From the NCBI GenBank assembly GCA_016700335.1, contig CP065014.1, forward strand, positions 1,221,479 to 1,285,478: DNA of 64,000 bases, read 5' to 3'. Shown here piece by piece: positions 1,145 to 47,448 of this stretch. Position 1 is the first letter of the stretch. Each line of letters begins with the position of its first letter. Source of the stretch: Chlorobiota bacterium (lineage in GTDB: Bacteria; Bacteroidota; Ignavibacteria; OLB7). The notes beneath the pieces were generated by a model. The model did not search any database, was not told where the DNA came from, and was given only the letters and a program-made list of their open reading frames with translations. The translations under genes were made by a program, and so were the position numbers.

Positions 1145-1948
1145 TTGGTAAATTGCTATTCTATAAATATGAAAAATTTTCTAAATATGCTTGAAATTGA
1201 TTCAAGCAATAAAAACAAAAAAGAAGTTCCTAAATATAAGGTTTTGTTTCAAGATGATAACATTGTAGTTTTTGATAAAAGTTCAGGAATTGCCGTTATA
1301 CCTGAACGATATGATATTGGAAATTCACTTAAAGAACTTGCAGAATTTGAAATTGGAAAATTGCTTACAGTTCATAGAATTGATAAGGAGACAAGTGGTA
1401 TTGTTCTCTTTGCAAAAAATGCTGAATCTCACAGAAATTTAAATATTCAATTTGAAAAGAGAGAATGTGAAAAAATTTATATTGCTGTTCTTGAAGGTGA
1501 GCTTCCTGAAGATGAAATGAAAATAGATATTCCAATTGGTACAGACCCCTCAGACCCAACAATTATGCGACCAAGCGCACGTGGCAAAGAGTGTGTTACC
1601 ATTTTCAAAGTGATAAATAGGTTTAAGGGATATACACTTGTTAGTGCAAATTTACTTACTGGAAGGCAACATCAAATTAGAGTTCATGCAAGGGCAATTG
1701 GATTTCCATTATTAGTTGATTCAATTTATGGAAATAGAAGCAATTTTTTGTTATCAACTCTTAAACGTGGATTCAGAACTGGTAAGTATTCTGAAGAATC
1801 CCCAATAATATCTAGGTTAACTTTGCATGCTCAAAAATTATCTATTAACCATCCTATTACTAATGAGAGAATTACATTTGAATCTGAATTACCTAGAGAT
1901 TTAAAAGCTTTAATTCAACAACTTTCAAAACTTAGAAGAATAAATTAA
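1145..1948 (+). CDS. RluA-family pseudouridine synthase
   Basis: Catalytic motif HRIDKETSGIVLFAKN (HRLDxxTSG), with a 23S rRNA/tRNA pseudouridine synthase-like order of blocks. Confidence 0.8.
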   Translation: MVNCYSINMKNFLNMLEIDSSNKNKKEVPKYKVLFQDDNIVVFDKSSGIAVIPERYDIGNSLKELAEFEIGKLLTVHRIDKETSGIVLFAKNAESHRNLNIQFEKRECEKIYIAVLEGELPEDEMKIDIPIGTDPSDPTIMRPSARGKECVTIFKVINRFKGYTLVSANLLTGRQHQIRVHARAIGFPLLVDSIYGNRSNFLLSTLKRGFRTGKYSEESPIISRLTLHAQKLSINHPITNERITFESELPRDLKALIQQLSKLRRIN

Positions 1949-2053
1949 TTTTATTAATGTATTTGACATTTTGAATTTATTTTATAAAATTTAGTTCGAA
2001 TTTTTTGGAAGTAATATTTCCATCAAAAATATTTTAAACTTGATTTGAAAAAA

Positions 2054-2090
2054 AATTGGATAAAATTTTTTCTATCCAATTGGTTTTATT
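2054..2090 (+). terminator. putative intrinsic terminator downstream of the RluA-family gene
   Basis: Inverted repeat aattggata ... tatccaatt followed by ggttttatt. Confidence 0.4.
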
Positions 2091-2235
2091 AATATTCTAT
2101 CTTTTAACTATTGAATATTAATTTAATTTATTTTGAATTAATTATGTTTAAAATTTAGTAATTAGTAACAACGTTTTATTACTCGCGTGCAACAAATTGG
2201 AGTATCAGATTTTTATTAACTAAAATTATATTTTA

Positions 2236-4944
2236 TTGATGACAAACTCATTTAATTCAAAGTCAACTTTCAATGTTTTAGGTAAAGATTATATTTTTTA
2301 TAATCTCAATACATTATCAAAAAATGGTATCAACCTTTCAAGATTACCATATTCACTAAAAGTTTTGTTAGAAAATTTACTCAGATGTGAAGATAATTTA
2401 AATGTAACCGAAAAAGATATAATGGCATTAGGAAATTGGGATTCAAATGCAATTCCAGTTAAAGAAATTGCTTTTATGCCAGCTAGAGTATTGTTACAAG
2501 ATTTTACTGGCGTTCCTTGCGTTGTTGATTTAGCAGCTATGAGAGATGCTATGAAAAAATTTGGTGGTGATGCTTCTAAAATTAATCCTCTAGTTGCTGT
2601 TGATTTAGTAATTGATCATTCAGTTCAAGTTGACCATTATGCAAGTGATACAGCATTTGATTTAAACAAAATTTTAGAATATTCTCGAAATCGTGAGAGG
2701 TATGCATTCTTAAGATGGGGACAAACAGCTTTTACAAATTTTAGAGCTGTACCTCCTGATACTGGTATAGTTCATCAAGTAAATTTAGAGTATTTAGCTC
2801 CTGTTTCTTTTATTAATAAGAACACAAACACTGTTTATCCTGATACTGTTGTTGGGACAGATTCTCATACAACAATGATTAATGGTATAGGCGTTTTAGG
2901 CTGGGGTGTTGGAGGTATTGAAGCTGAAGCAGTTATGCTTGGCCAACCAGTTTCAATGCTAATACCTAGAGTTGTTGGTTTTAAATTAACTGGTAAATTA
3001 TCAGAAGGTTCAACTTCAACAGATTTAGTTTTAACAGTAACAGAAATATTACGTAAACATGGAGTAGTTGGTAAATTTGTTGAATTCTATGGAAAAGGTC
3101 TAAAAAATTTATCATTAGCAGATAGAGCAACAATTGCAAATATGGCTCCAGAGTATGGTGCAACATGTGGAATTTTCCCTATTGATTCTGAATCAATTCG
3201 ATACATGAAGTTTACTGGTAGAACCGAAGAGCAAGTATTAGTTACTGAAGCATATTATAAAGCACAAGGTATGTTTCATGATGACAATACACCTGAAGCA
3301 GATTATAGTGAGTTCATTGAGTTAGATTTATCTACAGTAGTTGCTAGTATTGCAGGACCTAAAAGACCACAAGATAGACTACTTTTATCTGAGACAAAAG
3401 AAAATTTTTATAAACTTATCAATTCTTTAGATAAATTATCTAGTTCTGATGCTGCTAATATTATTAAAGAATCTTCAACACAAATTGTAAATGGTTCTAC
3501 TTTTAATATTCAACATGGCTCGGTTGTTATTGCTGCAATAACTTCTTGTACTAATACTTCAAATCCGTCTGTACTTGTTGCAGCAGGACTCGTTGCAAAA
3601 AAAGCATATGAGAAAGGATTGAACAGAAAGCCATGGGTTAAAACTTCATTAGCACCAGGTTCTCAAGTAGTAACAAAGTATCTTTCTGATTCAGGGCTTG
3701 ATAAATATCTTAACGCAATTGGATTCAATAATGTTGGTTATGGTTGTACAACTTGTATAGGAAATTCAGGACCATTACCAATTGAAATTTCAAAATCTGT
3801 AAATGAAAATTCTTTAGTTGTTGCTTCAGTATTATCAGGAAACAGAAACTTTGAAGGAAGAGTTAATCAAGATGTAAAAGCAAATTATTTAATGTCTCCT
3901 CCATTAGTTGTTGTTTATGCAATAGCAGGTAGAATTGATATTGATTTACATAATGATCCAATTGGTTTAGATGAAAACGGTGTAAATGTTTATCTAAAAG
4001 ATATTTGGCCAACTTTACGAGAGGTTCAAGATGTTATGGATAAATCTGTTAGAAGTGAAATGTTTTTAGAAACATATAAAGATGTATTTAAAGGTGATGA
4101 ACTTTGGAACAGTTTGGAGATACCAGAAGGAGATTTGTATAATTGGAATGAAGATTCTACTTATGTAAAACATCCACCATATTTTGAAGGAATGAATATT
4201 GAATCAGAAAATGAAATTAAAGAAATTTCAAATGCATATTGTTTAGCATTTTTAGGTGATAGTGTAACTACAGATCATATATCTCCAGCTGGTGCTATTA
4301 AGCCATCTTCTCCTGCTGGTGTATATCTAACTGGTAAAGGAATTGATATTCCCGATTTTAATAGCTATGGTTCCAGACGTGGTAATCATGAAGTAATGGT
4401 TAGAGGTACTTTTGCCAATATTAGAATCAGAAATAAAATGCTTCAAGATGTTGAAGGAGGATTTACTAATTTTATTCCAACTAGTGAACAATTACCAATT
4501 TATGATGCTTCTATAAAATACCAAGAAAATGGAAATTCACTTGTTGTTATAGCTGGAAAAGAATATGGTTCTGGTTCATCAAGAGATTGGGCTGCTAAAG
4601 GAACAATGTTGTTGGGTGTTAAAATGGTGATAACTGAAAGTTATGAAAGAATTCATAGAAGTAATTTAGTAGGAATGGGAATTTTACCATTGCAATTTAT
4701 AAATGGTGAAAGTGCTGAAAGTCTTGGTCTGACTGGTTATGAGAGATATTCAACAAAAGGTTTTAGTACTTTATTTATTGCAGAATTTCCTAGTAATAGA
4801 GTTATTGACGTAATTGCTACAAAGAGTGATGGTAGTGAAGTATTTTTTAAAGCAACTGTAAGAATTGATACTCCACAAGAAGTTTTGTATTTTAAAAACG
4901 GTGGAATATTGCCATATGTTCTTAGAAAACTTCTATCAAATTAA
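2236..4944 (+). CDS. acnA: aconitate hydratase A
   Basis: A 902-aa protein with aconitase-family blocks ([45 protein letters not shown]). Confidence 0.93.
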
Positions 4945-17636: not shown

Positions 17637-19376
17637 ATGGATAATTCAAATCAAATATCAAAAAACAACAATCAAAATACAAATCAAAATTCATCAAATA
17701 ATAATAAGAATGAATTAAATAGACAAAATACTAATCAAAATAAAAATCAACGAAATAATAGTTCTAATAAACAATCATTATCTCAAAGATTTCAAAAAAA
17801 TGAAACCAAAAATTTGGAAGTTGGTAAAATAAATAATAACGAAAAAAATGAAAATCTTGTTGTTGATATAAATAAACAAAATGATTTAATAACCAATCCA
17901 AAAACAAAAATTGTTAATAAGCAATTTTCTAAACCTATTCCTAGACCGAATTTTAATCAGAATCAAAAACCTAAGAATCAGGGTAAACAATTAAATCAAA
18001 GTAGTCAAACAAACAGTGTTAAAGCTAATAGTAATGTTGCAACTGAGAAAAGAACTCAACAAAATCCAAATAATTCTGATAAGACACAAAACAAACAAAT
18101 AAATGAAAAAAGAAACAGTCATCAATCAAGAAATAATTCTCAATCTAGAAATAGCGATTTAAAATCAAACTCTAAACCACAATTAATTAACAATCAAAGT
18201 AATCATAGAAACAACTTTGAAATTATAAAAAGTAATAATGATTATTTTAATGATGAAGAAACTTATGAAGAGATAAAAATAATTCGTGAGAATATTGAAC
18301 ATAAACATGGGGATATGTCAAATGATACTGAAATGAAGTATAATCCTAAAAAAGTTCAAAAAATTGAATCTACAAAAGGTACTTTAGCAAGTAAATTAGT
18401 GGCAGATACTTTAATTGGAAGAGAGTCAAATTGTGAGCATGGTTGCGGTAGTGGTGGTAATTGTAATACTGGTGGTTGCGGAACTAATAGTATTGTTCAA
18501 TTAATGCTTACAAATTTTGAATACAAGGACACAAGAAGAATTATCGAAGTTGAATTTAGGGGTGGAAGAAGAGAATTTGTTCATGTATTTGACGATGATA
18601 TTCGATTAAAAACAATTGATAAAGTAATTGTAGAAATTGATAAAGGTCTTGATTATGGGACAGTTTCTATGACTGGTTCATTGGTTCATGCAAAAAGAAA
18701 AGCAAAACAATTAACTGGAGAACCTTTGCCAAAATTAATTAGAAAAGCATCTGATCCAGATATTGCTAATTATGTTGAAATTAGAAATTTAGAAAGGGAA
18801 GATAGAATCAAATGTCAAGAAAGAGTAAAGTATTTTAATTTGGATATGCATTTGTTTGATGTTGAATGGCAATTTGATAAGAAAAGAGTTACATTTTTTT
18901 ATACTGCAGATGGTAGAGTTGATTTTAGAGAATTAGTAAAAGACTTAGCAAATATTTTTAGAGCTAGAATTGAGTTAAGGCAAGTTCCTCCTAGAGATGA
19001 AGCTAAAAGACTAGGTACTTTAGGCATTTGTGGTAAAGAGCTATGCTGTACAACGCATCTAAGTAGATATGAACACATTACTTTAGAGCACGCTAAATAT
19101 CAAATGCTTCAACCAAATCCTCAGAAATTATCTGGGCAATGTGGTAGATTAAAATGTTGTCTTTTATACGAAGTGGATAATTACATTGAAGGACTTAAAA
19201 AATTTCCTCCATTAGAATCAAATATTAGAACTGAAAAGGGGGAAGCTATAATTCAGAAAATTGATATTTTTAGGGACACAGTAACATTGCATTATTTAGG
19301 TTCAGATCAATGGGAAACTATAAGCTTGTTGGAGTTAAAAAAGTATGTTAAAATTGTAAATAATGTGGTTGCATAA
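17637..19376 (+). CDS. PSP1 C-terminal domain protein (YaaT/RicT-like) with a long N/Q-rich N-terminal extension
   Basis: The C-terminal roughly 300 aa match the PSP1/YaaT region (…FYTADGRVDFRELVKDLANIFRARIELRQV…). It lies immediately downstream of holB, as in Bacillus holB-yaaT. The N-terminal roughly 270 aa are Asn/Gln/Lys low complexity. Confidence 0.75.
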   Translation: MDNSNQISKNNNQNTNQNSSNNNKNELNRQNTNQNKNQRNNSSNKQSLSQRFQKNETKNLEVGKINNNEKNENLVVDINKQNDLITNPKTKIVNKQFSKPIPRPNFNQNQKPKNQGKQLNQSSQTNSVKANSNVATEKRTQQNPNNSDKTQNKQINEKRNSHQSRNNSQSRNSDLKSNSKPQLINNQSNHRNNFEIIKSNNDYFNDEETYEEIKIIRENIEHKHGDMSNDTEMKYNPKKVQKIESTKGTLASKLVADTLIGRESNCEHGCGSGGNCNTGGCGTNSIVQLMLTNFEYKDTRRIIEVEFRGGRREFVHVFDDDIRLKTIDKVIVEIDKGLDYGTVSMTGSLVHAKRKAKQLTGEPLPKLIRKASDPDIANYVEIRNLEREDRIKCQERVKYFNLDMHLFDVEWQFDKKRVTFFYTADGRVDFRELVKDLANIFRARIELRQVPPRDEAKRLGTLGICGKELCCTTHLSRYEHITLEHAKYQMLQPNPQKLSGQCGRLKCCLLYEVDNYIEGLKKFPPLESNIRTEKGEAIIQKIDIFRDTVTLHYLGSDQWETISLLELKKYVKIVNNVVA

Positions 19377-34810: not shown

Positions 34811-35256
34811 TTAGTATGTCCATTCTCTGTGGCTTACAGGTAAACGATTTAATTCCTCTTTATAAAACTTCCATTGTGGCATATGCTTTTCCATCAAGGT
34901 CAGGAAACGGTCGTTGTGATGTCTTTCTGTAAAATGTATCATTTCGTGAACCACAATATATTCCAAACAATGCAAAGGTTTTTTTGCCAGTTCTAAGTTT
35001 ATCCAAATTCTTTTTTTCTCAATGTTGCAAGTTCCCCATTTGGTTTTCATTTGTTTTACTTGCCAGTCAGCAACTGTAACACCAATTTGTTTTCCCATTT
35101 GTCAATAATGGGCTGAATGAGTTTTTTTAATTCTGTCCGATACCATTCATTAATGATGATTTGTCTGTCGTTGGGTTGTGCGGTTGCGTATTTTTTATTT
35201 TCAGAAGGGAAGGATAATTTTTTTAATTCAATTTTTTCAGGGTGGGGCAGGCACAC
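34811..35256 (-). pseudogene. YgjP/DUF45-like HExxH metallohydrolase remnant (typical companion of type I RM loci), frameshifted and N-terminally truncated
   Basis: Two overlapping minus-strand ORFs (35056..35256 and 34811..35098) together give ...WYRTELKKLIQPIIDKW... then ...KTKWGTCNIEKKRIWINLELAKKPLHCLEYIVVHEMIHFTERHHNDRF (WGSCS...HE.xH core). No N-terminal roughly 80 aa remain, and the IS left end abuts the first codon. Confidence 0.65.
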
Positions 35257-35300
35257 TCTTTGTCTTGTCCTGAAATAGGTTTACACTAAAAAGTGTAAAA

Positions 35301-35732
35301 ATGGACAAAAAAATCATTCAAAAAGCAGGTAAGTATTATACCTTAGAAGAAAGACATCAAATCATTCAAGAGTTAATTGCGACTGGCTGTACTAAAGTTG
35401 AAATTTGGGAAAAATATACTGGAGATATAGAAGAACATGGTCAACTACTGCGCTGGATGCGTCAACTAGGATATAATGTTGGAATTAAAACAAGAAGGCC
35501 TAATATTGTATCAAATAATTATCTCATGGTAACTAAGAAATCAAAACCAGATAAGGAGATTAAAATTGAAGATGATTCTTTTGAAAATCTTCAATTAAAA
35601 AAACGAATTGCTGATTTGGAAAAGCAGTTAAAGGATGCCGAACTAAAGGCAATTGCATTTTCTACTATGGTAGATATTGCAGAAAAAGAGTTCAATATAC
35701 CGATTAGAAAAAAGCTCAATACCAAACCATAG
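35301..35732 (+). CDS. IS3-family transposase OrfA (HTH DNA-binding plus coiled-coil)
   Basis: 143 aa with an N-terminal HTH, a leucine heptad region LKKRIADLEKQLKDAELK, and an end 6 bp before the orfB ATG. Confidence 0.8.
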   Translation: MDKKIIQKAGKYYTLEERHQIIQELIATGCTKVEIWEKYTGDIEEHGQLLRWMRQLGYNVGIKTRRPNIVSNNYLMVTKKSKPDKEIKIEDDSFENLQLKKRIADLEKQLKDAELKAIAFSTMVDIAEKEFNIPIRKKLNTKP

Positions 35733-35737
35733 AAGTA

Positions 35738-36680
35738 ATGAAAAATAATTTTTCACACATAGGATTAGCCAAGTTATGTGGATGGTTTGGTATTACTAGA
35801 CAGGCTTATTATCAGAACAATTGGGAAGGAATATCTTCTACTCTAGAAGAAGATTTGATTATACATCAAGTAAAAGAAATTCGTAAAAATCATCGTAGAA
35901 TGGGAACACGAAAACTATATGAATTATTACAACCATTTATTCTTGAACATCAAATAAAAATAGGCAGAGATGCACTATTTAATATGCTTTCGGCTAATCA
36001 TTTATTAGTAAGAAAACGTAAACGTAGAATACAAACTACGAATTCATATCATTGGTTAAGAAAATATCCTAATCTCGTACGTGAGTTTGTACCAACTAAA
36101 ATCAACCAACTTTGGGTAAGTGATATCACTTATTGGAAAATAGATACTGGAGAGCATCTTTACATCAGTTTTATTACTGATGCATATTCACATAAGATAG
36201 TAGGCTATCAAGTAGCTGAAACTATGGAAGCGATAGAAAGTATTCAAGCATTGCAAATGGCTCTCTCTGGCTTGGGGCCAGAGAGCCATTTGCAACACCT
36301 ATCCAGTAAGTAATCTCATTCATCATAGCGATAGAGGTATACAATATTGTAGCAATGCTTATGTAAAGCTATTGAAAGATAATAATATCAATATTAGTAT
36401 GACAGAAAAAGGCGATCCATTAGAAAATGCAGTGGCAGAACGTGTAAATGGAATCATCAAAGATGAGTATTTAGAAACTTATAATATTGATAACTTAAAT
36501 GATGCTAAGGAATTACTTAAAGCTGTAGTAGATTTGTATAACAATGAAAGACCACATATGAGTATTGGAAACCATACACCAAATAATATACATCATTCAA
36601 AAACAAATATAAAAACCGATAGATTATGGAAAAACTATTATCGAAAAAAAACTACATTTGTAAACACAGTTCAGGACTAA
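35738..36680 (+). pseudogene. IS3-family transposase OrfB (DDE integrase core) interrupted by a 22-bp hairpin-forming insertion
   Basis: WVSDITYW...(frame break at about 36271-36292)...LIHHSDRGIQYCS...ENAVAERVNGIIKDE. Deleting 36271-36292 in silico restores a continuous ALQMALSGNTYPVSNLIHHSDRG frame. Confidence 0.75.
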
Positions 36681-36815
36681 ATAGAAACTGTAAACTAATA
36701 GTAGGATTAATTAATTAAACTGTAAACTTTTTTTAGGACGAGTCACTTTGCCAAGTTTTGGCTTGTGTGTTGGCTTGTGCGACTTGGCAATGTGTGTGAC
36801 TGCAGCGGTGGCTCA

Positions 36816-39800
36816 TTAGTTCTGATTTTTCTTAAAGTTTTCTGCTTGTTCAAAAATCTCAACATATACTTCGTCTCTCTCAACTGGTGGATAACCAAAC
36901 TCGTCAAGCAAGAGAATTAGTCCAACTTTTAATGCTGATTTGATGTCATCTCGTTTGTTCCAGTCAGGGAATTTGGCTTGCCCGTCAACCAAGTCTTTCA
37001 CGGCTTTTGCAAGGTCAATCATTTTGTCTTCAGGATATTTGAAGTCGTATTTTATACAGAGTTCTTTGAGTATGTCGTAAAATGCTTTTTCTTCAAAGTC
37101 AATTCCTAAAGCATCTCCTGCCGAAAATTCTTTGTGAACTTCCCAAATCAAATCTGTCAAAGCGGAAGCCATTTCTTCATACACTTCACTTCTCAAAATG
37201 TCGTTTGCATCACGGTCGTTGTAGCGTTCAACCAAGGCTTGCATCTTTTTGGTAAAGTCAATTCCTTTTACTCGGTTTACTTTTTTGATTTCTGCAATTA
37301 CTTTAGCCAATAATTGTTGAAGCAATTTGATTTTTGTATTCGGCAATTTGATTTTATCAATCTTAGCCAAATAATCTTCATCAAAAATGTCTTGTTCGGT
37401 TTCTGCTTCATCACCGAGTTTGAAAATTTCTTCAACTCCTTCACTTTGCAACGCTTCTTTTATCATTTCCCGAACTTTGGTATTCATCTGTGCTGTGTCG
37501 GGTGCATTGCCTTTGGTGAGTTTGAAAACAATGGAACGAACAGCCAAATAGAAATGTGTGTAATCTCTTTCTAACTGCGTTAATTGTTCGCTTCCTGCAC
37601 AAATATCATAAGCGGCTTTCAGTCGCTTTACCAAGCCCATAAATCGGGTTTCAAATTCTTTGGATTGTTGCACATATTCGGCTGCTAAATTCAAAGTGTT
37701 TAATTGCTGAATGGTTGTGCCTTTGAAATATTTTGAATTGTCAAATGTGTGAAACAGTTTAGCCAAGAGGTCTAAATGATTTCTTACAATGATGATGGAT
37801 TCTGCAATGTCTTCAAAATTGTCTTTGTCGCCTTCGCTGTATTGCTTCAACGCCAAATTCATTTGCGTTTTGATGCCGATATAATCCACAACCAAACCTT
37901 TATTCTTTCCTTCAAACTTGCGGTTTACTCTTGATATGGTTTGAATTAAATTGTGTCGCTGAATTGGTTTGTCAATGTAAATGCTGTCCAAGAACGGCAC
38001 ATCAAAACCTGTGAGCCACATATCAACCACAATTGCAATTTTGAAATTTGATTTTTCATTTTTGAATTGTCTATCAAGTTCTTTGCGTTGGTCTTTAGTT
38101 CCCAACAAATCATACATTACCTTCGGGTCGTCTTGTCCTCTGGTGGCAATGAGTTTAATACGTTCAATAGGTTTCAGTTCTCGTTTATCTTTGTCTGTAA
38201 GTTCTGCACCTTCTTCGGCTGCTCGTATTTCGTTCCATTCGGGTTTTATTTCAATAATGTTTTTATACAACTCATACGCAATTTCACGAGTGCTACACAC
38301 AAACATTGCTTTACCTTTTACGGTTGAACCTTCTGAAACCCTTTTTTCATAATGGTTTACAAAATCTTCGGCAACTGCTTTTAAACGGTCAGGGTCGCCA
38401 ATAATGGCATACATCTGAGCCATTTCTTTTTTGCTTTGTTCAATCTGATTTTCGTTGCTTCCTATCTCGGCACATTTTGCGTAATAATCTTCAATCTCTT
38501 TGAGTTTTGAATTATTCAACAACACTTTTGCTGCTCTGCCTTCATACACAATTCGAACAGTGATTTCATCTTTCACTGATTCAGTCATTGTGTAAGCATC
38601 AACAACTTTTCCAAACACATCAAGCGTTGCATCTATTGGCGTTCCTGTAAAGCCAACAAAAGTGGCATTGGGCAATGAATCGTGTAAATATTTAGCAAAG
38701 CCGTATGTTTTAGTAACGCCTTTCTCTGTAACTTTTACTTTTTGGTCAAGGTTTACTTGGCTTCTGTGTGCTTCGTCAGAAATGCAAATCACGTTTGGTC
38801 TATCAGTAAGCAATTGTGTGTCCTCTGTAAACTTGTGAATTGTGGTTAAGAAAACGCCTCCGCTTTGTCTGCCTTGAATTAATTCTCTTAGGTTGGCTCT
38901 GCTCTCAACACTCACCACTGTATTGTCACCAATAAAGTTTTTGGCATTGGTAAATTGTCCCGAAAGTTGGTCGTCTAAATCGGTGCGGTCGGTTATTAAA
39001 ACAATTGTTGGGCTTTCAAAATATTCGCTTTTCATCAACAACCTTGTCAAGTAAAGCATAGTAAAACTCTTTCCGCAACCAGTAGCACCAAAGTATGTTC
39101 CCCCCTTTCCATTTCCGTTGGGCTTTTGTGCTTTCTTGATATTGTCATACAATGCTCTTGCAGCATAGTATTGCGGATAGCGACAAACTATTTTTTCGTT
39201 TTTCTTAGAACTATCAGGAATGTAAATGAAGTTGCGGATAATATCACGCAAACGGTTTTTATGAAACATTCCTTGTATAAGTGTAAACATACTGTCAATG
39301 CCGTCCACTTCTTTTGCCAAACCTGCTACTCTTCGCCAGCCATAGAAAAACTCATACGGAGCAAAGAATGAACCTGACTTGTTGTTTACGCCATCGCTAA
39401 TAACACAAAAAGCATTGTATTTAAACAGTTCGGGAATGTCTCTGCGGTAACGAACAGTTAATTGCTTGAAAGCATCATAAATAGTGGCTTCTTCACGAAT
39501 GGCAGATTTAAATTCAAATACCACCAAAGGCAAACCATTGATATAAACAATGCCATCAGGAATACGTTTTTCTGAACCAATAATTTCTAACTGGTTTACG
39601 AATTTGTAAATATTAGTGTCGGCAGGATAAACTTCTTCGGGTTCGGCTGCAATAGAAATTAACTGGTCTGCTTCGGGCTGGCGGTGCTTATTTAAACCTG
39701 CGTAATTGATAAGTTGAATGTAAATATCCTTTTGATTACGGTCTTCTCGTTTAAGAATAAAACCGTCAGAAAGCATTTTTAAAAATGTTTTGTTGCTTTC

Positions 39801-40028
39801 ATAAAGGTCAGAAGCAGAAAGTGATTTGAGTTGAAGAATAATAGATTTGATTTCATTTACCGTAATGCCTTGACCAGCGTATTGCGTTAAAAGAAAGGTT
39901 TGTAAATCTTCTTCTATTAATACTTCGTCAGGCTTACGAGTTATCGTAATGCCCAAGTGGTGGGGAAATCCTTCTTGCCCCAACAATTCGGTAAATGCCT
40001 TTTCTAAACTTGCCTCTGTAAATTTCAT
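36816..40028 (-). CDS. hsdR: type I restriction enzyme R subunit
   Basis: 1070 aa with the HsdR N-terminal nuclease region, SF2 helicase motifs including DEAH (VICISDEAHRSQ), and a position downstream of hsdM/hsdS. Confidence 0.92.
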   Translation of the reverse strand: MKFTEASLEKAFTELLGQEGFPHHLGITITRKPDEVLIEEDLQTFLLTQYAGQGITVNEIKSIILQLKSLSASDLYESNKTFLKMLSDGFILKREDRNQKDIYIQLINYAGLNKHRQPEADQLISIAAEPEEVYPADTNIYKFVNQLEIIGSEKRIPDGIVYINGLPLVVFEFKSAIREEATIYDAFKQLTVRYRRDIPELFKYNAFCVISDGVNNKSGSFFAPYEFFYGWRRVAGLAKEVDGIDSMFTLIQGMFHKNRLRDIIRNFIYIPDSSKKNEKIVCRYPQYYAARALYDNIKKAQKPNGNGKGGTYFGATGCGKSFTMLYLTRLLMKSEYFESPTIVLITDRTDLDDQLSGQFTNAKNFIGDNTVVSVESRANLRELIQGRQSGGVFLTTIHKFTEDTQLLTDRPNVICISDEAHRSQVNLDQKVKVTEKGVTKTYGFAKYLHDSLPNATFVGFTGTPIDATLDVFGKVVDAYTMTESVKDEITVRIVYEGRAAKVLLNNSKLKEIEDYYAKCAEIGSNENQIEQSKKEMAQMYAIIGDPDRLKAVAEDFVNHYEKRVSEGSTVKGKAMFVCSTREIAYELYKNIIEIKPEWNEIRAAEEGAELTDKDKRELKPIERIKLIATRGQDDPKVMYDLLGTKDQRKELDRQFKNEKSNFKIAIVVDMWLTGFDVPFLDSIYIDKPIQRHNLIQTISRVNRKFEGKNKGLVVDYIGIKTQMNLALKQYSEGDKDNFEDIAESIIIVRNHLDLLAKLFHTFDNSKYFKGTTIQQLNTLNLAAEYVQQSKEFETRFMGLVKRLKAAYDICAGSEQLTQLERDYTHFYLAVRSIVFKLTKGNAPDTAQMNTKVREMIKEALQSEGVEEIFKLGDEAETEQDIFDEDYLAKIDKIKLPNTKIKLLQQLLAKVIAEIKKVNRVKGIDFTKKMQALVERYNDRDANDILRSEVYEEMASALTDLIWEVHKEFSAGDALGIDFEEKAFYDILKELCIKYDFKYPEDKMIDLAKAVKDLVDGQAKFPDWNKRDDIKSALKVGLILLLDEFGYPPVERDEVYVEIFEQAENFKKNQN

Positions 40029-40051
40029 TTATAATTGTTAATGATAAATGG

Positions 40052-40423
40052 TTAATTGTTAATGTTTGCTTTAACGGATTTAATTATACTTGTAATAAGT
40101 TTGATAATTTCTACAGCATCATTGTTTATACTTTCAAATTGTTCTTGGGTTAAGTAATCAGTATCTTTTAGAAGTTCAAGCCAGTAAATAGTCTCGTTAA
40201 TTTCTTTTTGAGCTATACCCATCTTATGCTTGAAATCGTTTTTGGTTTCTGCGTGTTCCGCCTCTCTAACCATTGCACCTACAGAAGTACCACTTCTAAG
40301 TAGTTGTTTTGAAAGCACAAACTCCTTTTTCTGCTTACACAAAAACTGATAGAGTTTTACCACCCTCACCGCAAACAAAAAACTCTTATTCTTTACAATG
40401 TTATCTCTCATTACTTTAACCAT
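40052..40423 (-). CDS. four-helix-bundle protein (TIGR02436-like; formerly '23S rRNA intervening-sequence protein')
   Basis: LSKQLLRSGTSVGAMVREAEHAETKNDFKHKMGIAQKEINETIYWLELL fits the conserved S..L.RS..S...N..E pattern of this family. The family is often embedded in RM loci. Confidence 0.7.
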   Translation of the reverse strand: MVKVMRDNIVKNKSFLFAVRVVKLYQFLCKQKKEFVLSKQLLRSGTSVGAMVREAEHAETKNDFKHKMGIAQKEINETIYWLELLKDTDYLTQEQFESINNDAVEIIKLITSIIKSVKANINN

Positions 40424-41415
40424 TTATCATTAACAATTAACCATTGAACACCAACCATTCTTTCTTGAATCATTTTTAATGTTTTCAAAATGGCTTCTTC
40501 TTTTGGTAATTCTCCATATACCAAATTTTTGAAGTCACCGTTGTAAATAGTTTTCAACTCATTCCATACATTTTCTAAGTCTCTAAAAATAAGTGCTTCA
40601 CTAGGATGATAATTTAGCCATTTATTATTGTTTCTAAAACTTGCAACATCATCATTGGCTACTTTTAAAAGCATTTCATCAAATGCCGTTGATTGAAAGA
40701 ATTTAAAGAACTCATCTTGTTTAAGTAGCTGATGTAAATCGTAGGTGTGCCGTATCTTTTTCTTTAAATCATCCATTGGATTTTCGCCATAAGAAAAACG
40801 AACCAAACTCATTATTTTCTCGCAAATGGTTCTTATTGGTTCTAATGCCAACAAGTTAAAAGGAAGTAGTCCGTTTTCTTTAGCAATATCAGACTGCTTA
40901 TTATCTAGCATCATTTGGCCAACAAATGAAACGATGCTTTTGGTGGTGTAAGGTTCGTAATATCCCAACCAAGTTGATTCCAAAATGATAACATTTCTTA
41001 CTTGGCCGTAATCGCCTTTAAATTCTTTGTTGTAGGAATGTGCCGTTTTTCGATTCATCCCCATTTTATGGGTAACGCCATCGATAGGTACTTCGGGCAA
41101 TACGGCTTCTACAACTGTGCTTACTGCTTTTAATTTTGATTTTAACTTGCTGTCTGTTTCTCCTTCTCGTCTCAATACTACCAAATCAATATCTTCCGAA
41201 AAGCGTTCTATCATATTGTAACATTTGGATAGTGCCGTTCCGCCTTTAAATACCGTGTCTTTGCCAATTTCATTATTGAAAATGGTAAACAAAGCATATG
41301 TAACCCAATAGTCTTTTTCTACATAAATGGCAGGGATTTTCATTTGGTCAGCTGTAAACTGTATCGCTTGTCTGAATAAGGTTTTGTTTTCGTGCAGCTT
41401 CATATTATGTTCCAT
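40411..41415 (-). CDS. abiEii: AbiEii/AbiGii-family nucleotidyltransferase toxin (DUF1814)
   Basis: FKGGTALSKCYNMIERFSEDIDLVV is the hallmark motif. The gene overlaps the upstream AbiEi-like gene by 16 bp. Confidence 0.82.
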   Translation of the reverse strand: MEHNMKLHENKTLFRQAIQFTADQMKIPAIYVEKDYWVTYALFTIFNNEIGKDTVFKGGTALSKCYNMIERFSEDIDLVVLRREGETDSKLKSKLKAVSTVVEAVLPEVPIDGVTHKMGMNRKTAHSYNKEFKGDYGQVRNVIILESTWLGYYEPYTTKSIVSFVGQMMLDNKQSDIAKENGLLPFNLLALEPIRTICEKIMSLVRFSYGENPMDDLKKKIRHTYDLHQLLKQDEFFKFFQSTAFDEMLLKVANDDVASFRNNNKWLNYHPSEALIFRDLENVWNELKTIYNGDFKNLVYGELPKEEAILKTLKMIQERMVGVQWLIVNDKWLK

Positions 41416-42125
41416 TTTTCGGTGGTGGATAATACTTTCGCTGCACCGGTTAGTTTATACTTGGTAATGGGGTTCAATGACTTGAAAAGTGTCTCTGTTA
41501 CTTTGCCTTGCTGCAATTGCTCTAACAGTGCACCTAATAAAGCCCTTGTAGCTGGCGGATATTTTAAAGCTAAGCGAACCAAGGTGTTGATTTCCTTTTC
41601 ATCTTGTGTTTTAATAATGGCTAAAAACCTTTTGCAGGATGCTTCTATATTGGCATCTGGTATTTTTTTTATGTAGCGAATAGCATCCAGTAACTGCAAC
41701 AAAGGAATATTCTCTTTGGTGATGGTGTTTTTTTGCTTTACAAAAGCTATCGTATAGCGTTCTCTTTTAAAATTGGGGCGAACCTGATTTTTACCTATCT
41801 GTATCGTATTGCTTACCTGTGTGGTTAAGCCCAATTGGTTGTATATGCTGTAACCCGTGAGATAGCCCGTTATTTTTCCGTTTTCTTCTAATAGGTCTTT
41901 TACTACTTGTGCCTGATTGGGTTGAAGGTTGCCAAATGGGGTATTTTCGGGTTTGTAGTATTTGCCTTTGGATAGTTTGGTAATCTTGCCCGAAATCACC
42001 ATACGATTCAGGGCTTTTATTACCGCTTCTTTTTGGTTCACCTCTGTAGTAAAGTCAGCATAGGTGAATACATAGCCCTTGGGTAGTCTGTCTATGGTAA
42101 ATGCTATGTATTCAGATATTTTCAT
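41400..42125 (-). CDS. abiEi: AbiEi-family antitoxin / transcriptional regulator (wHTH, DUF6088-like)
   Basis: LPKGYVFTYADF...GKITKLSKGKYYKPE matches the AbiEi-family N-terminal wHTH pattern, and it sits immediately upstream of and overlapping abiEii. Confidence 0.72.
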   Translation of the reverse strand: MKISEYIAFTIDRLPKGYVFTYADFTTEVNQKEAVIKALNRMVISGKITKLSKGKYYKPENTPFGNLQPNQAQVVKDLLEENGKITGYLTGYSIYNQLGLTTQVSNTIQIGKNQVRPNFKRERYTIAFVKQKNTITKENIPLLQLLDAIRYIKKIPDANIEASCKRFLAIIKTQDEKEINTLVRLALKYPPATRALLGALLEQLQQGKVTETLFKSLNPITKYKLTGAAKVLSTTEKWNII

Positions 42126-42157
42126 TCTTTTTATTGTAGTGCAAAGATAATTGATTT

Positions 42158-42186
42158 GTCCAGTTTATTAGCAAAAAAACTGGACA
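42158..42186. promoter_or_regulatory. 10-bp-arm inverted repeat (tgtccagttt N9 aaactggaca) 30-60 bp upstream of abiEi; candidate operator
   Basis: Perfect arms at 42158-42167 and 42177-42186. Confidence 0.45.
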
Positions 42187-42202
42187 TTTTGAAAATTGAT
42201 TG

Positions 42203-42245
42203 AGTGGTAGTAACTTCGCAACGCAGTTGCGAAGTTACTACCACT
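42203..42245. promoter_or_regulatory. perfect palindrome with 20-bp arms and a 3-nt centre, lying between the 3' end of the upstream nuclease-like gene and abiEi
   Basis: agtggtagtaacttcgcaac-gca-gttgcgaagttactaccact. No U tract follows on the minus strand. Confidence 0.6.
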
Positions 42246-42269
42246 GAAAGTTTTGATATTTTGGATAGA

Positions 42270-43436
42270 TTAAAAAGGTAAATCATCATCTAATTCTAAC
42301 GGTTCAGTTATTACGTTTACTTGTTTTGCACCCTCAACAATAAATTTGGCTCTTTCAAAAAGTTCGTCAAATGTTAATATTTCAACATTTCTGCTGTCCC
42401 TTCTGAATAGCTCCAAAGTTTTCTTTTTTATCTCTTTTTCTAATGTATTGCTGGAATTTTCAAGTTCCTTCCAATCTCCAATTATTAAAATAACTTTTGA
42501 ATCGTGTGCTTTTTGCGTTAACGGTTCTCCGTTGATGTATTGCGGACTATCTAAACGAATTAATCCCGAAGCTTTATGTTCTAGTATTTGAGAAACAGAT
42601 TCAATCAAGTCGTTTGAAAGTTTCCAAGAGTTGGAGCGGTTTCCCTTGTTCGCAAACAAAAGGGTAGAAGGTTTCTTTAATTCAACAAAGGTTGTAAAGA
42701 AGTTATCACCCAATAGATAATCTCCAATTACGGTATTTGAGCCGTCTAACTCTGCATAAGAAAGATGAACTTCTCTTTGCAGAATTTCTTGATAGCGATA
42801 ATCTAAACCATAGCCAAAAATCCACTGATTTTTTTCAAAAAAGTATTGCCAAACTTTTTCTTCACTGTGTTTTTTCAAGCCGTTTGCTTCGGCATAGGTT
42901 TTCCAATATTCCGAATTGTTTTTTAAGTCTGAAAATATTTGAAGTCCTCGTTTTCTAAATGCTGTGTTTACAATATCCTTTGATGAAATGATACCTTCAT
43001 TTATCAAAGCTTCAACTAATTCAGCACCGCCTTTTTTTGATAATAATGTTTTAACGGAACGTATAGAATCTGCATCTAATTCTTGGTCTTCTATAATTTT
43101 CAGACGCTTTTCAGTAATTCCTTTTAAATCAATTTCGCTTATGAAAGAAAGGAATGCTTTTAATTGAGCAAAGTTGAATTTACTCAATTTGATTCTTTCA
43201 GTTTCTTTGTTGTGAACTACTTTGATTAACTCAAATCCTTCAATATCATTTTGGTCTGTTATGTAAACGACTTTCAACATCGTTCTTGGAGCAAATTTTA
43301 AAACAGCACCTTTTTCATCTTCGTGTACCACTTGAAAGAATCGCCCTGCTTCAAACTCGTGCCAGTATAAACGATTGGGTTTGTAGTTTGAAATTATCTC
43401 TTCTTCCGAAGTTGTATTTTGGGAAATCCGGCTCAT
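42270..43436 (-). CDS. candidate PD-(D/E)xK nuclease-fold protein, Shedu/DUF4263-like, nested in the type I RM operon (388 aa)
   Basis: C-terminal half: ...WIFGYGLDYRYQ...VIGDYLLGDNFFTTFVELKKPSTLLF...KVILIIGDW shows a D...D-x(n)-E-L-K arrangement consistent with a restriction-endonuclease-like core. There are no ATPase motifs, and the N-terminal roughly 200 aa are unassigned. Confidence 0.45.
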   Translation of the reverse strand: MSRISQNTTSEEEIISNYKPNRLYWHEFEAGRFFQVVHEDEKGAVLKFAPRTMLKVVYITDQNDIEGFELIKVVHNKETERIKLSKFNFAQLKAFLSFISEIDLKGITEKRLKIIEDQELDADSIRSVKTLLSKKGGAELVEALINEGIISSKDIVNTAFRKRGLQIFSDLKNNSEYWKTYAEANGLKKHSEEKVWQYFFEKNQWIFGYGLDYRYQEILQREVHLSYAELDGSNTVIGDYLLGDNFFTTFVELKKPSTLLFANKGNRSNSWKLSNDLIESVSQILEHKASGLIRLDSPQYINGEPLTQKAHDSKVILIIGDWKELENSSNTLEKEIKKKTLELFRRDSRNVEILTFDELFERAKFIVEGAKQVNVITEPLELDDDLPF

Positions 43437-43441
43437 AGTTT

Positions 43442-44531
43442 TTAATTTTCTATTGTCGCTAATTTGGAAAGTAGTAAATCTTTCAGTTCCGTTAGCTTTT
43501 GGGTTTCTAATTGCTTGAAGTTGATTTGCGTGAAAATTTTCTTGGCTAAGAAATCAAAATTAAAAGCCATTTCATCATTTGGAAGAACAGTCTCAATTTC
43601 ATAGAGCATATCATATGAAACAAATGGTTGTGAACTCCCTCTTGTGTTTGACATCAAATCTTTTGATAATAATGTCAAGTATGAGAACCATTTCAAACTT
43701 TCATGTTTTGCTAAACATTTAACACCATTGTAGGTCACGAAGTGTTTTCCAAATGCAAAAACAACCTTTCCGCAATATTCTCCCATGTGACCTATAACTG
43801 GTGCGTCTTCACTATTATATTCATCATAACCACCAATTACACCACCAGCTCCATAAATTGAAAACTGACCACCATTGTTAGGATTGGTATTCCCAATTCC
43901 ATATTGGAATTTGTATAAATCCTCAAGTGTTCCTTTTCTCCACCCCTCAGGCAAATTCTCCAAATCAATTCCCTCCACAAACCATTGCTTATAAATAGCC
44001 TGTGCGGTTTCTTCTAGCTTTTGTATCAGTTGCTGGTTTAGGGCTATGCGGTTTTGGATAACATTGTATTCTTTTACTATTTCTTTTTGTTTGTCAAGGT
44101 GCGGAATGGGTATTTGCATATCACAAAAGGATTTCCAAGGTAAACCACCTCTTACATCTGCATCGGTATAAAACCAAGCATTACGGTCAAACTCTCGTAC
44201 GAGTAAACCACATCATCAAAAATTCAGGATTAAGAATTTCGGTGTCTTTGATTTCAAATACATCATAAGCAGGTGAAACCATAAATTCTTCATCAGATTT
44301 TGACATCGAAATTGGCAAACGGTAATCTCTACCTACGTGCATTCTATTGCAAGCAAATTGATTTTTTCTTACGAGCTTGTAAACAGATAAATCAGTTCCG
44401 ACAATATTAGCAACTGAAGGCATAAAGAATTTATCAATATTAATTCCTAAAAGCTGTTCCGCTTTTTCTTCTGAGTTGCGAATTTTCAATTCCTGTATGT
44501 AATCGCCTAAGCGGCTATAATTTGATTTCAT
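43442..44531 (-). pseudogene. hsdS: type I RM specificity subunit HsdS, split by a frameshift within the first target-recognition domain
   Basis: ORF 44187..44531 carries the N-terminal TRD. ORF 43442..44119 carries the end of that TRD (IPIPHLDKQKEIV), the central conserved region, TRD2 and the C-terminal conserved region. The ORF2 frame stays open up to 44212, so the shift lies at about 44190-44215. Confidence 0.7.
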
Positions 44532-46065
44532 AACCCAAATCTTTAAACACGGTTAGTAAATCATTTTTTGAAGCTGCTTCGGCTTTCAGCAAATCCGCGA
44601 ATTCGTTTTTCAGTGTTTGCATTTTTTCATCAAAATCTATTTTCTCATCACGGTTTACAAATTCAATGTATTTGCTCGGCACGAGTGAAAAATCTTTTTT
44701 TACTACTTCTTCCAAAGTTGCAGAATAGCAGAACTCGGGAATGTTTTCAATTTCATTGCATTGCCATTGGTGGTAAGAGCCTGTAATCTTGATTATATCT
44801 TCTTCTGAAAACTGAATATATTTTTTCTCAAACGGAATTCCTATTTGTCGTAAATCCATAAATAGAATTTCCTTTTCTCTATTTCGGTAATTGCGGGTTT
44901 CATCACCAATTATTCTTGTATGAGCTTTTTTATTCTTATTCAAAATCCAAAGCGTTACACTAATGTTGGTGGTATAAAACATATCTTGTGGTAATACCAA
45001 AATCGATTCAACCAAATTATTTTCAATCAGCTTTTTGCGTATTTTATATTCTTCGCCACCACCACTCAATGCACCATTTGCCAATATAAAACCAGCAATT
45101 CCGTTTTCGGAAAGTTTGGAAACCATATTCAAAATCCAACCATAGTTGGCGTTGCTTTTTGGTGGCACATCATAACCTCTCCAACGTGGGTCGTCAATCA
45201 ATTCATTTTCGCCTCGCCAGTCTTTTTGGTTAAAAGGTGGGTTTGCCATTATGTAATCGGCTTTCAAGTCTTTGTGTTGGTCGTCCGCAAATGTGTCGGC
45301 ATCTTTTTCACCAAGGTTTGCAGAAATACCTCTTATGGCAAGGTTCATCTTTGCAAGTTTGTATGTTGTTTTGGTGTATTCCTGTCCGTAAATAGAAACT
45401 TCTTTTTGGTTTCCGTGGTGTGCTTCAATAAACTTAATGGATTGAACAAACATACCTCCCGAACCACAAGCAGGGTCATAGATAATTCCTTTGTATGGCT
45501 CAATCATTTCTGAAATAAGGCTTACAATTGTCTTTGGCGTATAGAATTCTCCTTTGCCTTTTCCTTCTGCAATCGCAAACTTTTTCAAGAAGTATTCATA
45601 CACACGCCCAACCAAATCTTGTCCTTTGTCTTTGAGTGTATTGATGCTGTCAATTTCGCTAATCAAAGAAGCCAGTTTGGTAATGTCTAAACCCAAACGA
45701 GAAAAGTAATTATCGGGCAATGCACCTTTCAAAGCTTTGTTGTCTTTTTCAATAGTATGCAAGGCTGTATCAATTATTAAAGCAATATCATTTTGTCTTG
45801 CCTTTTTAACAATGTAGCTCCAACGTGAAATTTCTTCCAAGAAAAACACATTGCTCATATTGTAGAACTCAGGCTTCTCAATATACTTTTCTTTGCCTTC
45901 GGCAATCAATTTGGTTCGGTGTTCTTCAAACTTGTCGCTTGCAAACTTTAAGAATACAAGTCCTAATACAACGTGTTTATATTCGGCTGGCTCAACGCTT
46001 CCTCTCAATTTATTTGCAGCTTCCCAAAGGGTAACTTCAATTGCTTTTTCTTTTACCTTAAACAT
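44515..46065 (-). CDS. hsdM: type I RM DNA methyltransferase subunit (N6-adenine)
   Basis: The N-terminal HsdM domain, an AdoMet motif DPACGSGGMFV, and the catalytic NPPF (IMANPPFNQKDW). The 3' end overlaps hsdS by 17 bp. Confidence 0.92.
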   Translation of the reverse strand: MFKVKEKAIEVTLWEAANKLRGSVEPAEYKHVVLGLVFLKFASDKFEEHRTKLIAEGKEKYIEKPEFYNMSNVFFLEEISRWSYIVKKARQNDIALIIDTALHTIEKDNKALKGALPDNYFSRLGLDITKLASLISEIDSINTLKDKGQDLVGRVYEYFLKKFAIAEGKGKGEFYTPKTIVSLISEMIEPYKGIIYDPACGSGGMFVQSIKFIEAHHGNQKEVSIYGQEYTKTTYKLAKMNLAIRGISANLGEKDADTFADDQHKDLKADYIMANPPFNQKDWRGENELIDDPRWRGYDVPPKSNANYGWILNMVSKLSENGIAGFILANGALSGGGEEYKIRKKLIENNLVESILVLPQDMFYTTNISVTLWILNKNKKAHTRIIGDETRNYRNREKEILFMDLRQIGIPFEKKYIQFSEEDIIKITGSYHQWQCNEIENIPEFCYSATLEEVVKKDFSLVPSKYIEFVNRDEKIDFDEKMQTLKNEFADLLKAEAASKNDLLTVFKDLGYEIKL

Positions 46066-46431
46066 ACCAAAGTTGGTTGGATTTGTCTGGTTTTGTTGTT
46101 CATGGAGTTGAGATTTATTATTTGATTTTGTTAAATGTAGGTTGAATCGTCTGCAACACTTTCAGTTAACATACAAAAATACACTTATAATTCATATTAA
46201 TTAAAATCTAGAATATAATTATTATCTCAAGTAATTACATTGTTTGCATCAACTCTTGAATGATATTTTTTTACTAGTAAAATGTAAAATAATTACCTAA
46301 CCTTTAATTATATTTTTATCAATGTTTTACACTTTTTATCTTCAACAATTTTAGAACAATTAGTTTAAATGTTATTGTATGTGTTTAACTTATTTAAAAA
46401 CTTATATTTGTAAAAATATTTACAACACAAA

Positions 46432-47448
46432 ATGGGATTTTTTGATAAAATAAAGAAAGGAGTAATTGATGCAGTTGAAGAAACCAAGGTTTCATTAAAA
46501 GAAACAATTGATGCACTTAGATCAGATAGGTTAAAAGAAGGACTTGCAAAAACAAGGGAGGGAATTTTTGAAAAACTGAATTTAGTTTTAGGTACAAATA
46601 GAATAATAGATGATAAAGTTTTAGATGAAATTGAAGAGGCTTTATTGTTAGCTGATGTAGGAGTACCGACAACAATAAAAATTAGTGATCAAGTAAGATT
46701 TAGGTGTAGAAATGAAGGAATTACTGATACTGATGGATTATCAATTTTACTTCAAGAAGAAATTACGAATGCTTTAATCAAATCACCATCAGCGAATAAT
46801 GATAAATTATTTGTAATACCAAATGAAAAAAAGCCACTAGTTATAATTGTTGTTGGAGTAAATGGAGTAGGTAAAACAACAACAATTGGCAAGTTGGCAT
46901 TTAATTATAAAAATGCTGGTCATAAAGTTATAATTGGTGCTGCTGATACTTTTAGAGCAGCTGCTAATGAACAGTTAGAGGTTTGGGCTAATAGGGCTGG
47001 TGTTGATATAGTTGGTCAAGGTCAAGGGGCTGACCCTGCTGCCGTTGCTTACGATACAGTTAAAGCTGCAATTTCAAGGGGAAGTGATGTAGTTATAATT
47101 GATACTGCTGGTAGGCTTCATAACAAAACAAACTTGATGGATGAGTTAAAGAAAATTAATAGGGTGATAAAGAAATTAAAATCTGAAGCACCTGATGAAG
47201 TATTCTTAGTTTTAGACGCAACAACTGGCCAAAATGCAATTCAACAAGCAAAAGAATTTATGCTTGCAACTGTTGTTACAGGGTTAGTGTTAACAAAACT
47301 TGATGGAACTGCTAAAGGAGGTGTTGTAATTGCAATTGCAGATACTTTGTCAATACCTGTCAGATATATTGGAGTAGGTGAGAAGATTGAAGATTTGCAA
47401 CCATTTTCTGCTAAAGAATATGCTGCAGCTTTATTTGAAAAAAAATGA
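46432..47448 (+). CDS. ftsY: signal recognition particle receptor FtsY (short form)
   Basis: NG domain with GVNGVGKTTTIGKLA, DTAGR and TKLDGTAKGG. Confidence 0.92.
   Translation: MGFFDKIKKGVIDAVEETKVSLKETIDALRSDRLKEGLAKTREGIFEKLNLVLGTNRIIDDKVLDEIEEALLLADVGVPTTIKISDQVRFRCRNEGITDTDGLSILLQEEITNALIKSPSANNDKLFVIPNEKKPLVIIVVGVNGVGKTTTIGKLAFNYKNAGHKVIIGAADTFRAAANEQLEVWANRAGVDIVGQGQGADPAAVAYDTVKAAISRGSDVVIIDTAGRLHNKTNLMDELKKINRVIKKLKSEAPDEVFLVLDATTGQNAIQQAKEFMLATVVTGLVLTKLDGTAKGGVVIAIADTLSIPVRYIGVGEKIEDLQPFSAKEYAAALFEKK

Follow-up and report, generated by a model that had tools for sequence, protein, structure and literature searches.

A Shedu (SduA) nuclease gene within a mobile type I restriction-modification cassette of a Chlorobiota bacterium

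Introduction

Which function may be ascribed to the 388-amino acid (aa) protein that is encoded between a type I specificity gene and an abiE gene pair in a stretch of 64,000 nucleotides (nt) from a Chlorobiota bacterium (contig CP065014.1; the whole stretch is called the window below, and its coordinates are used throughout)? A preliminary description, made from the letters of this DNA, left the protein unassigned and proposed it as a candidate Shedu/DUF4263-type or novel defence nuclease. Judged by its sequence, it is SduA and belongs, as an ordinary member, to the established Shedu (SduA/DUF4263) family, whose nucleases act against phages. The protein can be called neither unassigned nor novel, because the identical sequence is already found in NCBI under the title 'MAG: DUF4263 domain-containing protein [Chlorobiota bacterium]' (MAG, metagenome-assembled genome), and its subfamily already has a full-length SduA model in PADLOC. 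We consider it highly probable that the gene encodes a single-protein Shedu system with a DUF4263 catalytic core, which resides in a mobile type I restriction-modification (RM) cassette and provides a layer of defence independent of it. Neither the type of gene nor its context is new, Shedu genes within RM systems as well as genes embedded in type I RM having been published. The gene deserves the label SduA (Shedu), and the significance of this assignment beyond annotation is small.

Family identity of the 388-aa protein

The list of open reading frames (ORFs) of the window contains the gene, with an ATG start, exactly where it had been placed before:

42270..43436, minus strand: sduA, complete 388-aa Shedu nuclease gene (ORF, Pfam SduA_C, PADLOC PDLC00392, NCBI identical protein)

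It is not a chance ORF, because 1954 homologs are found in the databases and the ratio of nonsynonymous to synonymous substitution rates (dN/dS) is 0.06-0.22 in comparison to five orthologs; for the nuclease domain, the ratio is 0.05-0.08 in the more diverged of these pairs. The protein is also encoded, with 100% identity, on two further metagenomic contigs, and a search for contigs encoding the window protein itself returned a single 1.5-kb contig, which added no context.

Profile, sequence and fold all agree on a Shedu/DUF4263-type PD-(D/E)xK nuclease, the first of the two identities proposed in the preliminary description. The Pfam family SduA_C (PF14082) matches residues 191-359 with an expectation value (E) of 1.1e-21 and 78.1 bits, well above the cut-off of 27, and the match spans positions 2-158 of the 159 positions of the profile. 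Altogether, 13 PADLOC SduA models match the protein, the best of them (PDLC00392) with E 3.7e-124 over residues 9-372, so that the N-terminal region also lies within a catalogued Shedu subfamily. The NCBIfam scan of the protein gave no match, and neither Pfam nor NCBIfam returned any NTPase family, as expected from the earlier remark that NTPase motifs are lacking. Close homologs are titled 'Shedu anti-phage system protein SduA domain-containing protein' in NCBI. Sequence matches in the PDB are Shedu proteins only: the Bacillus cereus enzyme (8ti8/8ti9) is found with E 6e-11 by the single sequence and with 1e-35 by a profile of 43 sequences, and Escherichia coli Shedu (8ps4) with E 5.9e-10 in a profile search. 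The AlphaFold2 (AF2) model has a predicted local distance difference test score (pLDDT) of 72, reaching ~80-93 across most of the nuclease core. When it was compared to known structures with Foldseek, the top four matches were 8ti9/8ti8 Shedu chains (prob 1.0), with E 1.2e-8 and a target-normalised template modelling (TM) score of 0.71 for 8ti9_C and scores of up to 0.72 among the chains, whereas every match outside Shedu had an E of at least 0.07.

These results also bear on the idea that the protein belongs to a different family of PD-(D/E)xK nucleases, being either a novel defence nuclease or one for housekeeping repair, and resembles DUF4263 only superficially. Its one foothold is the N-terminal part, of which the preliminary description held ~200 aa to be unplaceable; this is correct as far as Pfam and NCBIfam are concerned, which have no match in the first 185 residues, but not for PADLOC, the SduA model of which covers the region. 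Given this full-length match, the Pfam score and four Shedu chains ahead of any other structural neighbour, we regard the chance of another family as close to negligible.

Nuclease domain and active site

The identification of the catalytic residues rests on the following features:

42327..42881, minus strand: DUF4263 / PD-(D/E)xK nuclease domain, residues 186-370 (alignment to 8ti8/8ti9, invariance, Foldseek)
42858-42860, minus strand: catalytic codon E193 (codon checked)
42720-42722, minus strand: catalytic codon D239 (codon checked)
42681-42683, minus strand: catalytic codon E252 (codon checked)
42675-42677, minus strand: catalytic codon K254 (codon checked)
42588-42590, minus strand: catalytic codon Q283 (codon checked)

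The nuclease motifs of B. cereus Shedu comprise E204 (motif I), D249 (II), E264 and K266 (III) and Q295 (IV) (Gu et al., PMC10441436), and a phmmer alignment puts these residues on E193, D239, E252, K254 and Q283 of the window protein, respectively. The E-to-A substitution present in 8ti9 falls in the column of E252. All five motif residues are invariant in 43 homologs (27-90% identity), an alignment in which only 12 columns, these five included, are invariant at all. The peptides on which the nuclease call had been founded are located at residues 238-244 (GDYLLGD), 250-256 (FVELKKP) and 314-322 (KVILIIGDW). The step from D239 to E252 is 13 residues, within the previously given spacing of 12-15 from the acidic residue to ELK. 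The triad of D, E and K was thus called correctly, with the amendment that the Asp of motif II is D239 and not D244, the residue with which the first peptide ends. The similarity to PF14082 and to Shedu structures in the PDB, as well as the conservation of the D/E/K residues, had both been suggested as checks, and both speak for the nuclease.

N-terminal region, linker and recombination

Two further parts of the protein precede the nuclease domain:

43122..43436, minus strand: putative N-terminal sensor domain, residues 1-105 (predicted secondary structure)
42882..43076, minus strand: helical linker, residues ~121-185 (AF2 helices 122-133, 137-146, 152-173, 177-184)

In the models, a helix (11-17) opens the region of residues 1-105, and five antiparallel strands (23-85) and a second helix (89-101) come after it. 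A low-confidence loop follows, and after it the AF2 model shows the four-helix linker (122-184), in which residue F168 is invariant in the homolog alignment. The predicted N-terminal topology matches one repeat of the sPC4/Whirly fold, which has been assigned to B. cereus Shedu and to the largest class, Type 1A (Gu et al., PMC10441436). With the isolated N-terminal domain as query, the best Foldseek match in the PDB was the plant Whirly protein PBF-2 (1l3a), albeit a weak one (prob 0.90, E 0.28), and Pur-alpha appeared at rank 7. The profile of this domain returned noise only (E of at least 0.7) from the PDB sequences and gave no link to the N-terminal domains of the B. cereus or E. coli SduA. 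A Type 1A membership in the sense of Gu et al., with a weakly Whirly-like N-terminal domain, would fit these models. The architecture as a whole is the 'type I' of Loeff et al. and the 'Type 1' of Gu et al.; the Type 2 or 'type II' Shedu, consisting of DUF4263 only (~254 aa), is ruled out by the ~185 residues preceding the nuclease domain, which are conserved in homologs.

The DNA encoding the putative sensor has a history of its own. Over ~330 nt at the 5' end of sduA (43106-43436), the nt identity to two metagenomic cassettes (L002, 3580-3910; L003, 10001-10330) is only 65-85%, whereas the remainder of the gene mostly is 97-100% identical to both alleles. In the N-terminal tract the synonymous divergence (dS) amounts to ~1.2, compared to 0.05-0.15 elsewhere in sduA, at a dN/dS of ~0.13 for the tract. 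The breakpoint lies near the boundary of domain and linker, and the divergent tract is contiguous with the variable region of hsdS that encodes the second target-recognition domain (TRD2). This pattern indicates that the sensor domain was replaced by recombination, its DNA being a recombinant mosaic.

The cassette in the window

On the minus strand, the genes follow each other in the order hsdM, hsdS, sduA, abiEi, abiEii, a 23S_rRNA_IVP gene and hsdR, and the whole region of 36.8-46.1 kb deserves to be labelled as a composite type I RM, Shedu and AbiE defence island:

44515..46065, minus strand: hsdM, type I methyltransferase, first gene of the operon (ORF; orthologs with HsdM_N and N6_Mtase)
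43442..44531, minus strand: hsdS, type I specificity subunit, split by a frameshift (Pfam Methylase_S, tblastn)
42203..42245, minus strand: hairpin with a perfect 20-bp stem and a 3-nt loop, 24 nt past the sduA stop codon
42162-42133: promoter-like site upstream of abiEi (consensus sigma-70 scan)
41400-42125, minus strand: abiEi (DUF6088) (Pfam; PADLOC AbiEi, 2.9e-59)
40411-41415, minus strand: abiEii (Pfam AbiEii; PADLOC AbiEii, 1.8e-104)
40052-40423, minus strand: 23S_rRNA_IVP / bAvd-like four-helix-bundle gene (PF05635, E 5e-30)
36816..40028, minus strand: hsdR, type I restriction subunit of 1070 aa, last gene of the operon (ORF; orthologs with HSDR_N/ResIII/T1RH-like_C)

Pfam and PADLOC thus bear out the flanks named in the preliminary description, hsdS upstream and the AbiE pair downstream of the 388-aa gene; the gap to hsdS, however, measures 5 nt (43437-43441) instead of the 6 bp given there. 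Because of this gap, the 4-nt overlap of the two genes in intact relatives and the strong hairpin past the stop codon, sduA is probably co-transcribed with hsdM and hsdS. The 150-nt intergenic region containing the hairpin folds with -47.1 kcal/mol (z = -10), and the hairpin is conserved in L002. It likely represents a transcript end or a stabiliser; because no U-tract follows, we only infer a role as terminator. The possibility of a dispersed repeat resembling repetitive extragenic palindromic (REP) elements was rejected, its arm being found once in the window. A terminator scan of 40000-46500 gave 5 sites in comparison to 3.9 expected from shuffled sequences, which is no enrichment, and missed this hairpin, which lacks a T-run. 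Likewise, a consensus sigma-70 promoter scan of the same region gave 19 sites where 23 were expected from shuffles, again no enrichment.

The G+C content of the cassette, 0.34-0.39, exceeds that of the flanks (0.27-0.31), which is what a mobile island would show, and the nt identity of the cassette to those of other metagenomes amounts to 77-95%; towards L002, hsdM shows 87% and hsdR 93% nt identity. We conclude that hsdM-hsdS-sduA, followed by variable cargo and hsdR, is a horizontally moving cassette, and that the abiEi-abiEii pair, a type IV toxin-antitoxin or abortive infection (Abi) module, is variable cargo downstream of sduA.

Two lesions might suggest that sduA is a decaying or inactive passenger in a degenerating island. 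The first concerns hsdS, which is split into ORFs of 114 and 225 aa by a frameshift near 44190-44200; a tblastn search with the intact 375-aa HsdS of L002/L003 showed the frame switch at residue ~110, the frame being lost after '...MMWFTR' and the conserved 'EFDRNAWFY' being found in another frame (44187-44242). The site is not a homopolymer, and either hsdS is a true pseudogene or split gene, or the assembly contains an error. The second is an insertion sequence (IS) of the IS3 family with a split orfB, which has been inserted just after hsdR. Yet sduA itself is full length with all its catalytic residues intact, occurs in identical copies on the two further contigs and is under strong purifying selection, which makes an inactive passenger very improbable.

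As to the insertion itself, the IS3-family element (~35263-36745) encodes a 143-aa orfA and an orfB with rve domain split into 191 and 102 aa. It directly follows hsdR and interrupts a YgjP-like (PF01863) metallopeptidase gene, remnants of which are located at 34811-35256; the insertion is missing from L002. The 23S_rRNA_IVP gene between abiEii and hsdR is missing from the L002 cassette as well, which otherwise is 93-95% identical. Two observations concern the start of the abiE module. A second inverted repeat, GTCCAGTTT...AAACTGGAC, at 42157-42186 overlaps the -35-like hexamer of the promoter-like site of abiEi and may be an AbiEi operator for autoregulation. In L003, the promoter and 5' part of abiEi are found once more downstream of hsdR (17649-17828, 86% identity to window 42010-42190), which hints at a duplication or recombination of the boundary of the abiE module.

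Genomic context among relatives

Is the position of sduA inside the type I operon a property of the protein or of the cassette? Close relatives with readable flanks were retrieved from 10 loci, namely five distinct metagenomic cassettes (L002, L003/L004, L005, L006/L007 and L008) and five genome loci at >=69% identity (L010-L013 and L079). In 10 of these 10, a count of loci as retrieved in which L005 and L010 represent a single Psychroflexus region, sduA is located downstream of hsdS and upstream of hsdR. It abuts hsdS wherever the junction was read: the two genes overlap by 4 nt in the intact cassettes among L002-L007 and are separated by 10 nt in L008. The interval between sduA and hsdR, on the other hand, varies and is occupied by AbiEi/AbiEii, RhuM, Abi_C, a Y1_Tnp-like gene or nothing. 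In L005-L008 other genes replace the abiE pair; an obligatory pairing of sduA with abiE was therefore rejected, RhuM, Abi_C or Y1_Tnp-like genes taking the place of AbiE in other cassettes. An unusual architecture was observed in L005 (Psychroflexus montanilacus), where a 552-aa fusion of Phage_integrase and SduA_C (1836-3494) is encoded within the same island, ~6 kb upstream of the RM-embedded sduA.

A wider survey covered 80 genome loci at 36-79% identity and their neighbours within 8 kb. In 14 of them, hsdM and hsdR flank sduA on the same strand, and six metagenome loci inside type I RM systems can be added. Tight hsdM-hsdS-sduA-hsdR operons are present even in Saccharibacteria and Gammaproteobacteria (L035, L054, L061 and L077; 41-49% identity), whose HsdM and HsdR are only distantly related to those of the window. 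In two loci, L050 and L070, sduA directly follows hsdM, with an HsdS-like ORF placed between it and hsdR, and a shorter HsdS-like ORF is present upstream of hsdM in each of the two; the position within type I operons is thus not fixed across the family. Five to seven further loci (L048, L049, L056, L058 and L060, also L021 and L043) adjoin a type III-like RM system, recognised by sequence motifs only, with a Res-like helicase-nuclease of ~800 aa and a methyltransferase containing a DPPY motif; their SduA proteins are 41-50% identical to that of the window. The proposed co-localisation of homologs with defence genes is accordingly found for type I as well as type III-like RM. About a quarter of the more distant relatives adjoin type I or III RM genes, whereas most relatives at 36-55% identity (~55 of the 80 loci) lack type I genes in the 8 kb surveyed. 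Apart from the loci with type I or type III-like neighbours, most are without any RM gene within this distance. In agreement with these results, 602 of 5,499 Shedu genes in a published collection were located inside RM systems, type I included (Gu et al., PMC10441436).

These distributions bear on a further explanation, namely that the RM-embedded SduA clade works in functional partnership with the type I enzyme instead of independently; an accessory nuclease of the RM system had also been considered as a possibility in the preliminary description. SduA could be a guardian, set free once anti-restriction proteins of a phage inhibit HsdMSR, as is PrrC in EcoprrI, or a partner that senses DNA ends or stalled translocation products generated by HsdR and attacks the ends left by HsdR cleavage. 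The constant place right after hsdS in the 10 close relatives, in front of cargo that varies, would be in keeping with such a partnership, and sduA and hsdS, overlapping by 4 nt in intact loci, may be translationally coupled. The four-gene operons of distant lineages with their distantly related HsdM and HsdR point in the same direction, as do the sensing of free DNA ends by E. coli SduA and the precedent of PrrC (PMC12707154). Against coupling, most distant relatives are without hsd neighbours, from which it follows that the SduA protein needs no Hsd partners. Moreover, hsdM, sduA and hsdR diverge roughly in parallel among the close relatives, so their co-occurrence is explicable by inheritance of a single cassette. 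Other systems embedded in type I loci that have been tested to date are functional on their own (TgvAB, PMC11411939), and type I loci quite generally have genes embedded in them, 96.7% of which are co-oriented, with PrrC as the most extreme example (Payne et al., 10.1101/2024.01.29.577857). A nearly exclusive embedding like that of PrrC was not found, embedding being universal only among the close relatives of this SduA. On balance, functional coupling appears unlikely, though it retains more weight than an inactive passenger or another nuclease family. The same low likelihood is given to its combination with a second proposal, according to which the recombining N-terminal domain co-diversifies with the neighbouring target-recognition domain of hsdS. 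Cooperation of Shedu with type I RM has been raised as a possibility, and left untested, by Gu et al. (PMC10441436); the linkage of hsdS and sduA, together with the recombinant N-terminal segment, makes this locus a natural system for asking whether the two cooperate.

Proposed role

Most likely, then, SduA provides a second layer of defence that is independent of the type I RM system beside it. Family membership, domain order, catalytic residues, fold, purifying selection and genomic context are established for the window gene itself. How the protein would act can be outlined by analogy with the SduA of B. cereus and E. coli, from which its oligomeric state, its activating signal and its mode of DNA cutting are taken. 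Both solved Shedu enzymes are tetramers held together by their nuclease domains (PMC10441436, 10.1101/2023.08.10.552762), and homotetramers, nuclease activity and protection against phages are known only for B. cereus, E. coli and a few other orthologs (PMC10441436, 10.1101/2023.08.10.552762). In the window protein, the DUF4263 domains (residues ~186-370) would likewise form an oligomeric, probably tetrameric, catalytic core. The helical linker and the N-terminal domain of β-sheet and helix may restrain this core and sense invading nucleic acid. The two characterised enzymes respond to free DNA ends or to single-stranded DNA, free ends being what E. coli SduA senses (Loeff et al., 10.1101/2023.08.10.552762), and the signal could be the same here; on receiving it, the DUF4263 site would nick or cut the DNA of a phage or other linear foreign DNA.

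Comparison with known systems

The closest known system is the SduA of B. cereus B4264 (8TI8/8TI9, Type 1A; PMC10441436), which is the best PDB match of the window protein by sequence as well as by fold. The two proteins are of the same length class (382 aa, compared to 388 aa here) and share the order of N-terminal domain, helical linker and C-terminal DUF4263 as well as the five conserved nuclease motif residues. For the N-terminal domain of the window protein, a β-sheet with a helix behind it is predicted, which resembles one sPC4/Whirly repeat. They differ in that the nuclease-domain chains are only 23-24% identical to the window protein (Foldseek) and the N-terminal domains have no detectable sequence similarity. 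The B. cereus gene comes from a Firmicutes host and has not been described as RM-embedded, unlike the sduA of the window, the host of which is a Chlorobiota/Bacteroidota-type MAG. The E. coli SduA (8PS4/8PS5, 10.1101/2023.08.10.552762) shares the 'type I' layout of a long N-terminal region and a C-terminal DUF4263, and its nuclease domain was detected by the profile (E 5.9e-10); it is more distant from the window protein than the B. cereus enzyme, and its N-terminal clamp domain was matched neither by sequence nor by Foldseek.

With respect to context, two unrelated systems resemble the locus. PrrC in the type IC hsd operon EcoprrI is, like SduA here, a nuclease encoded inside a type I RM operon and in the same orientation. 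Its slot also lies between hsdS and hsdR. As a protein, PrrC is unrelated to SduA, combining an ABC-ATPase with an anticodon nuclease specific for tRNA-Lys, and its target is RNA. PrrC is almost exclusively RM-embedded, whereas the SduA family below ~55% identity is mostly found outside type I loci. In the literature, PrrC figures as the paradigm of an RM-embedded second defence (PMC12707154, 10.1101/2024.01.29.577857). Finally, the type IV DUF262/DUF1524 system in a type I RM cluster gives complementary protection and is, like sduA, an embedded defence nuclease module, but it consists of two proteins, depends on modification and is not homologous to SduA.
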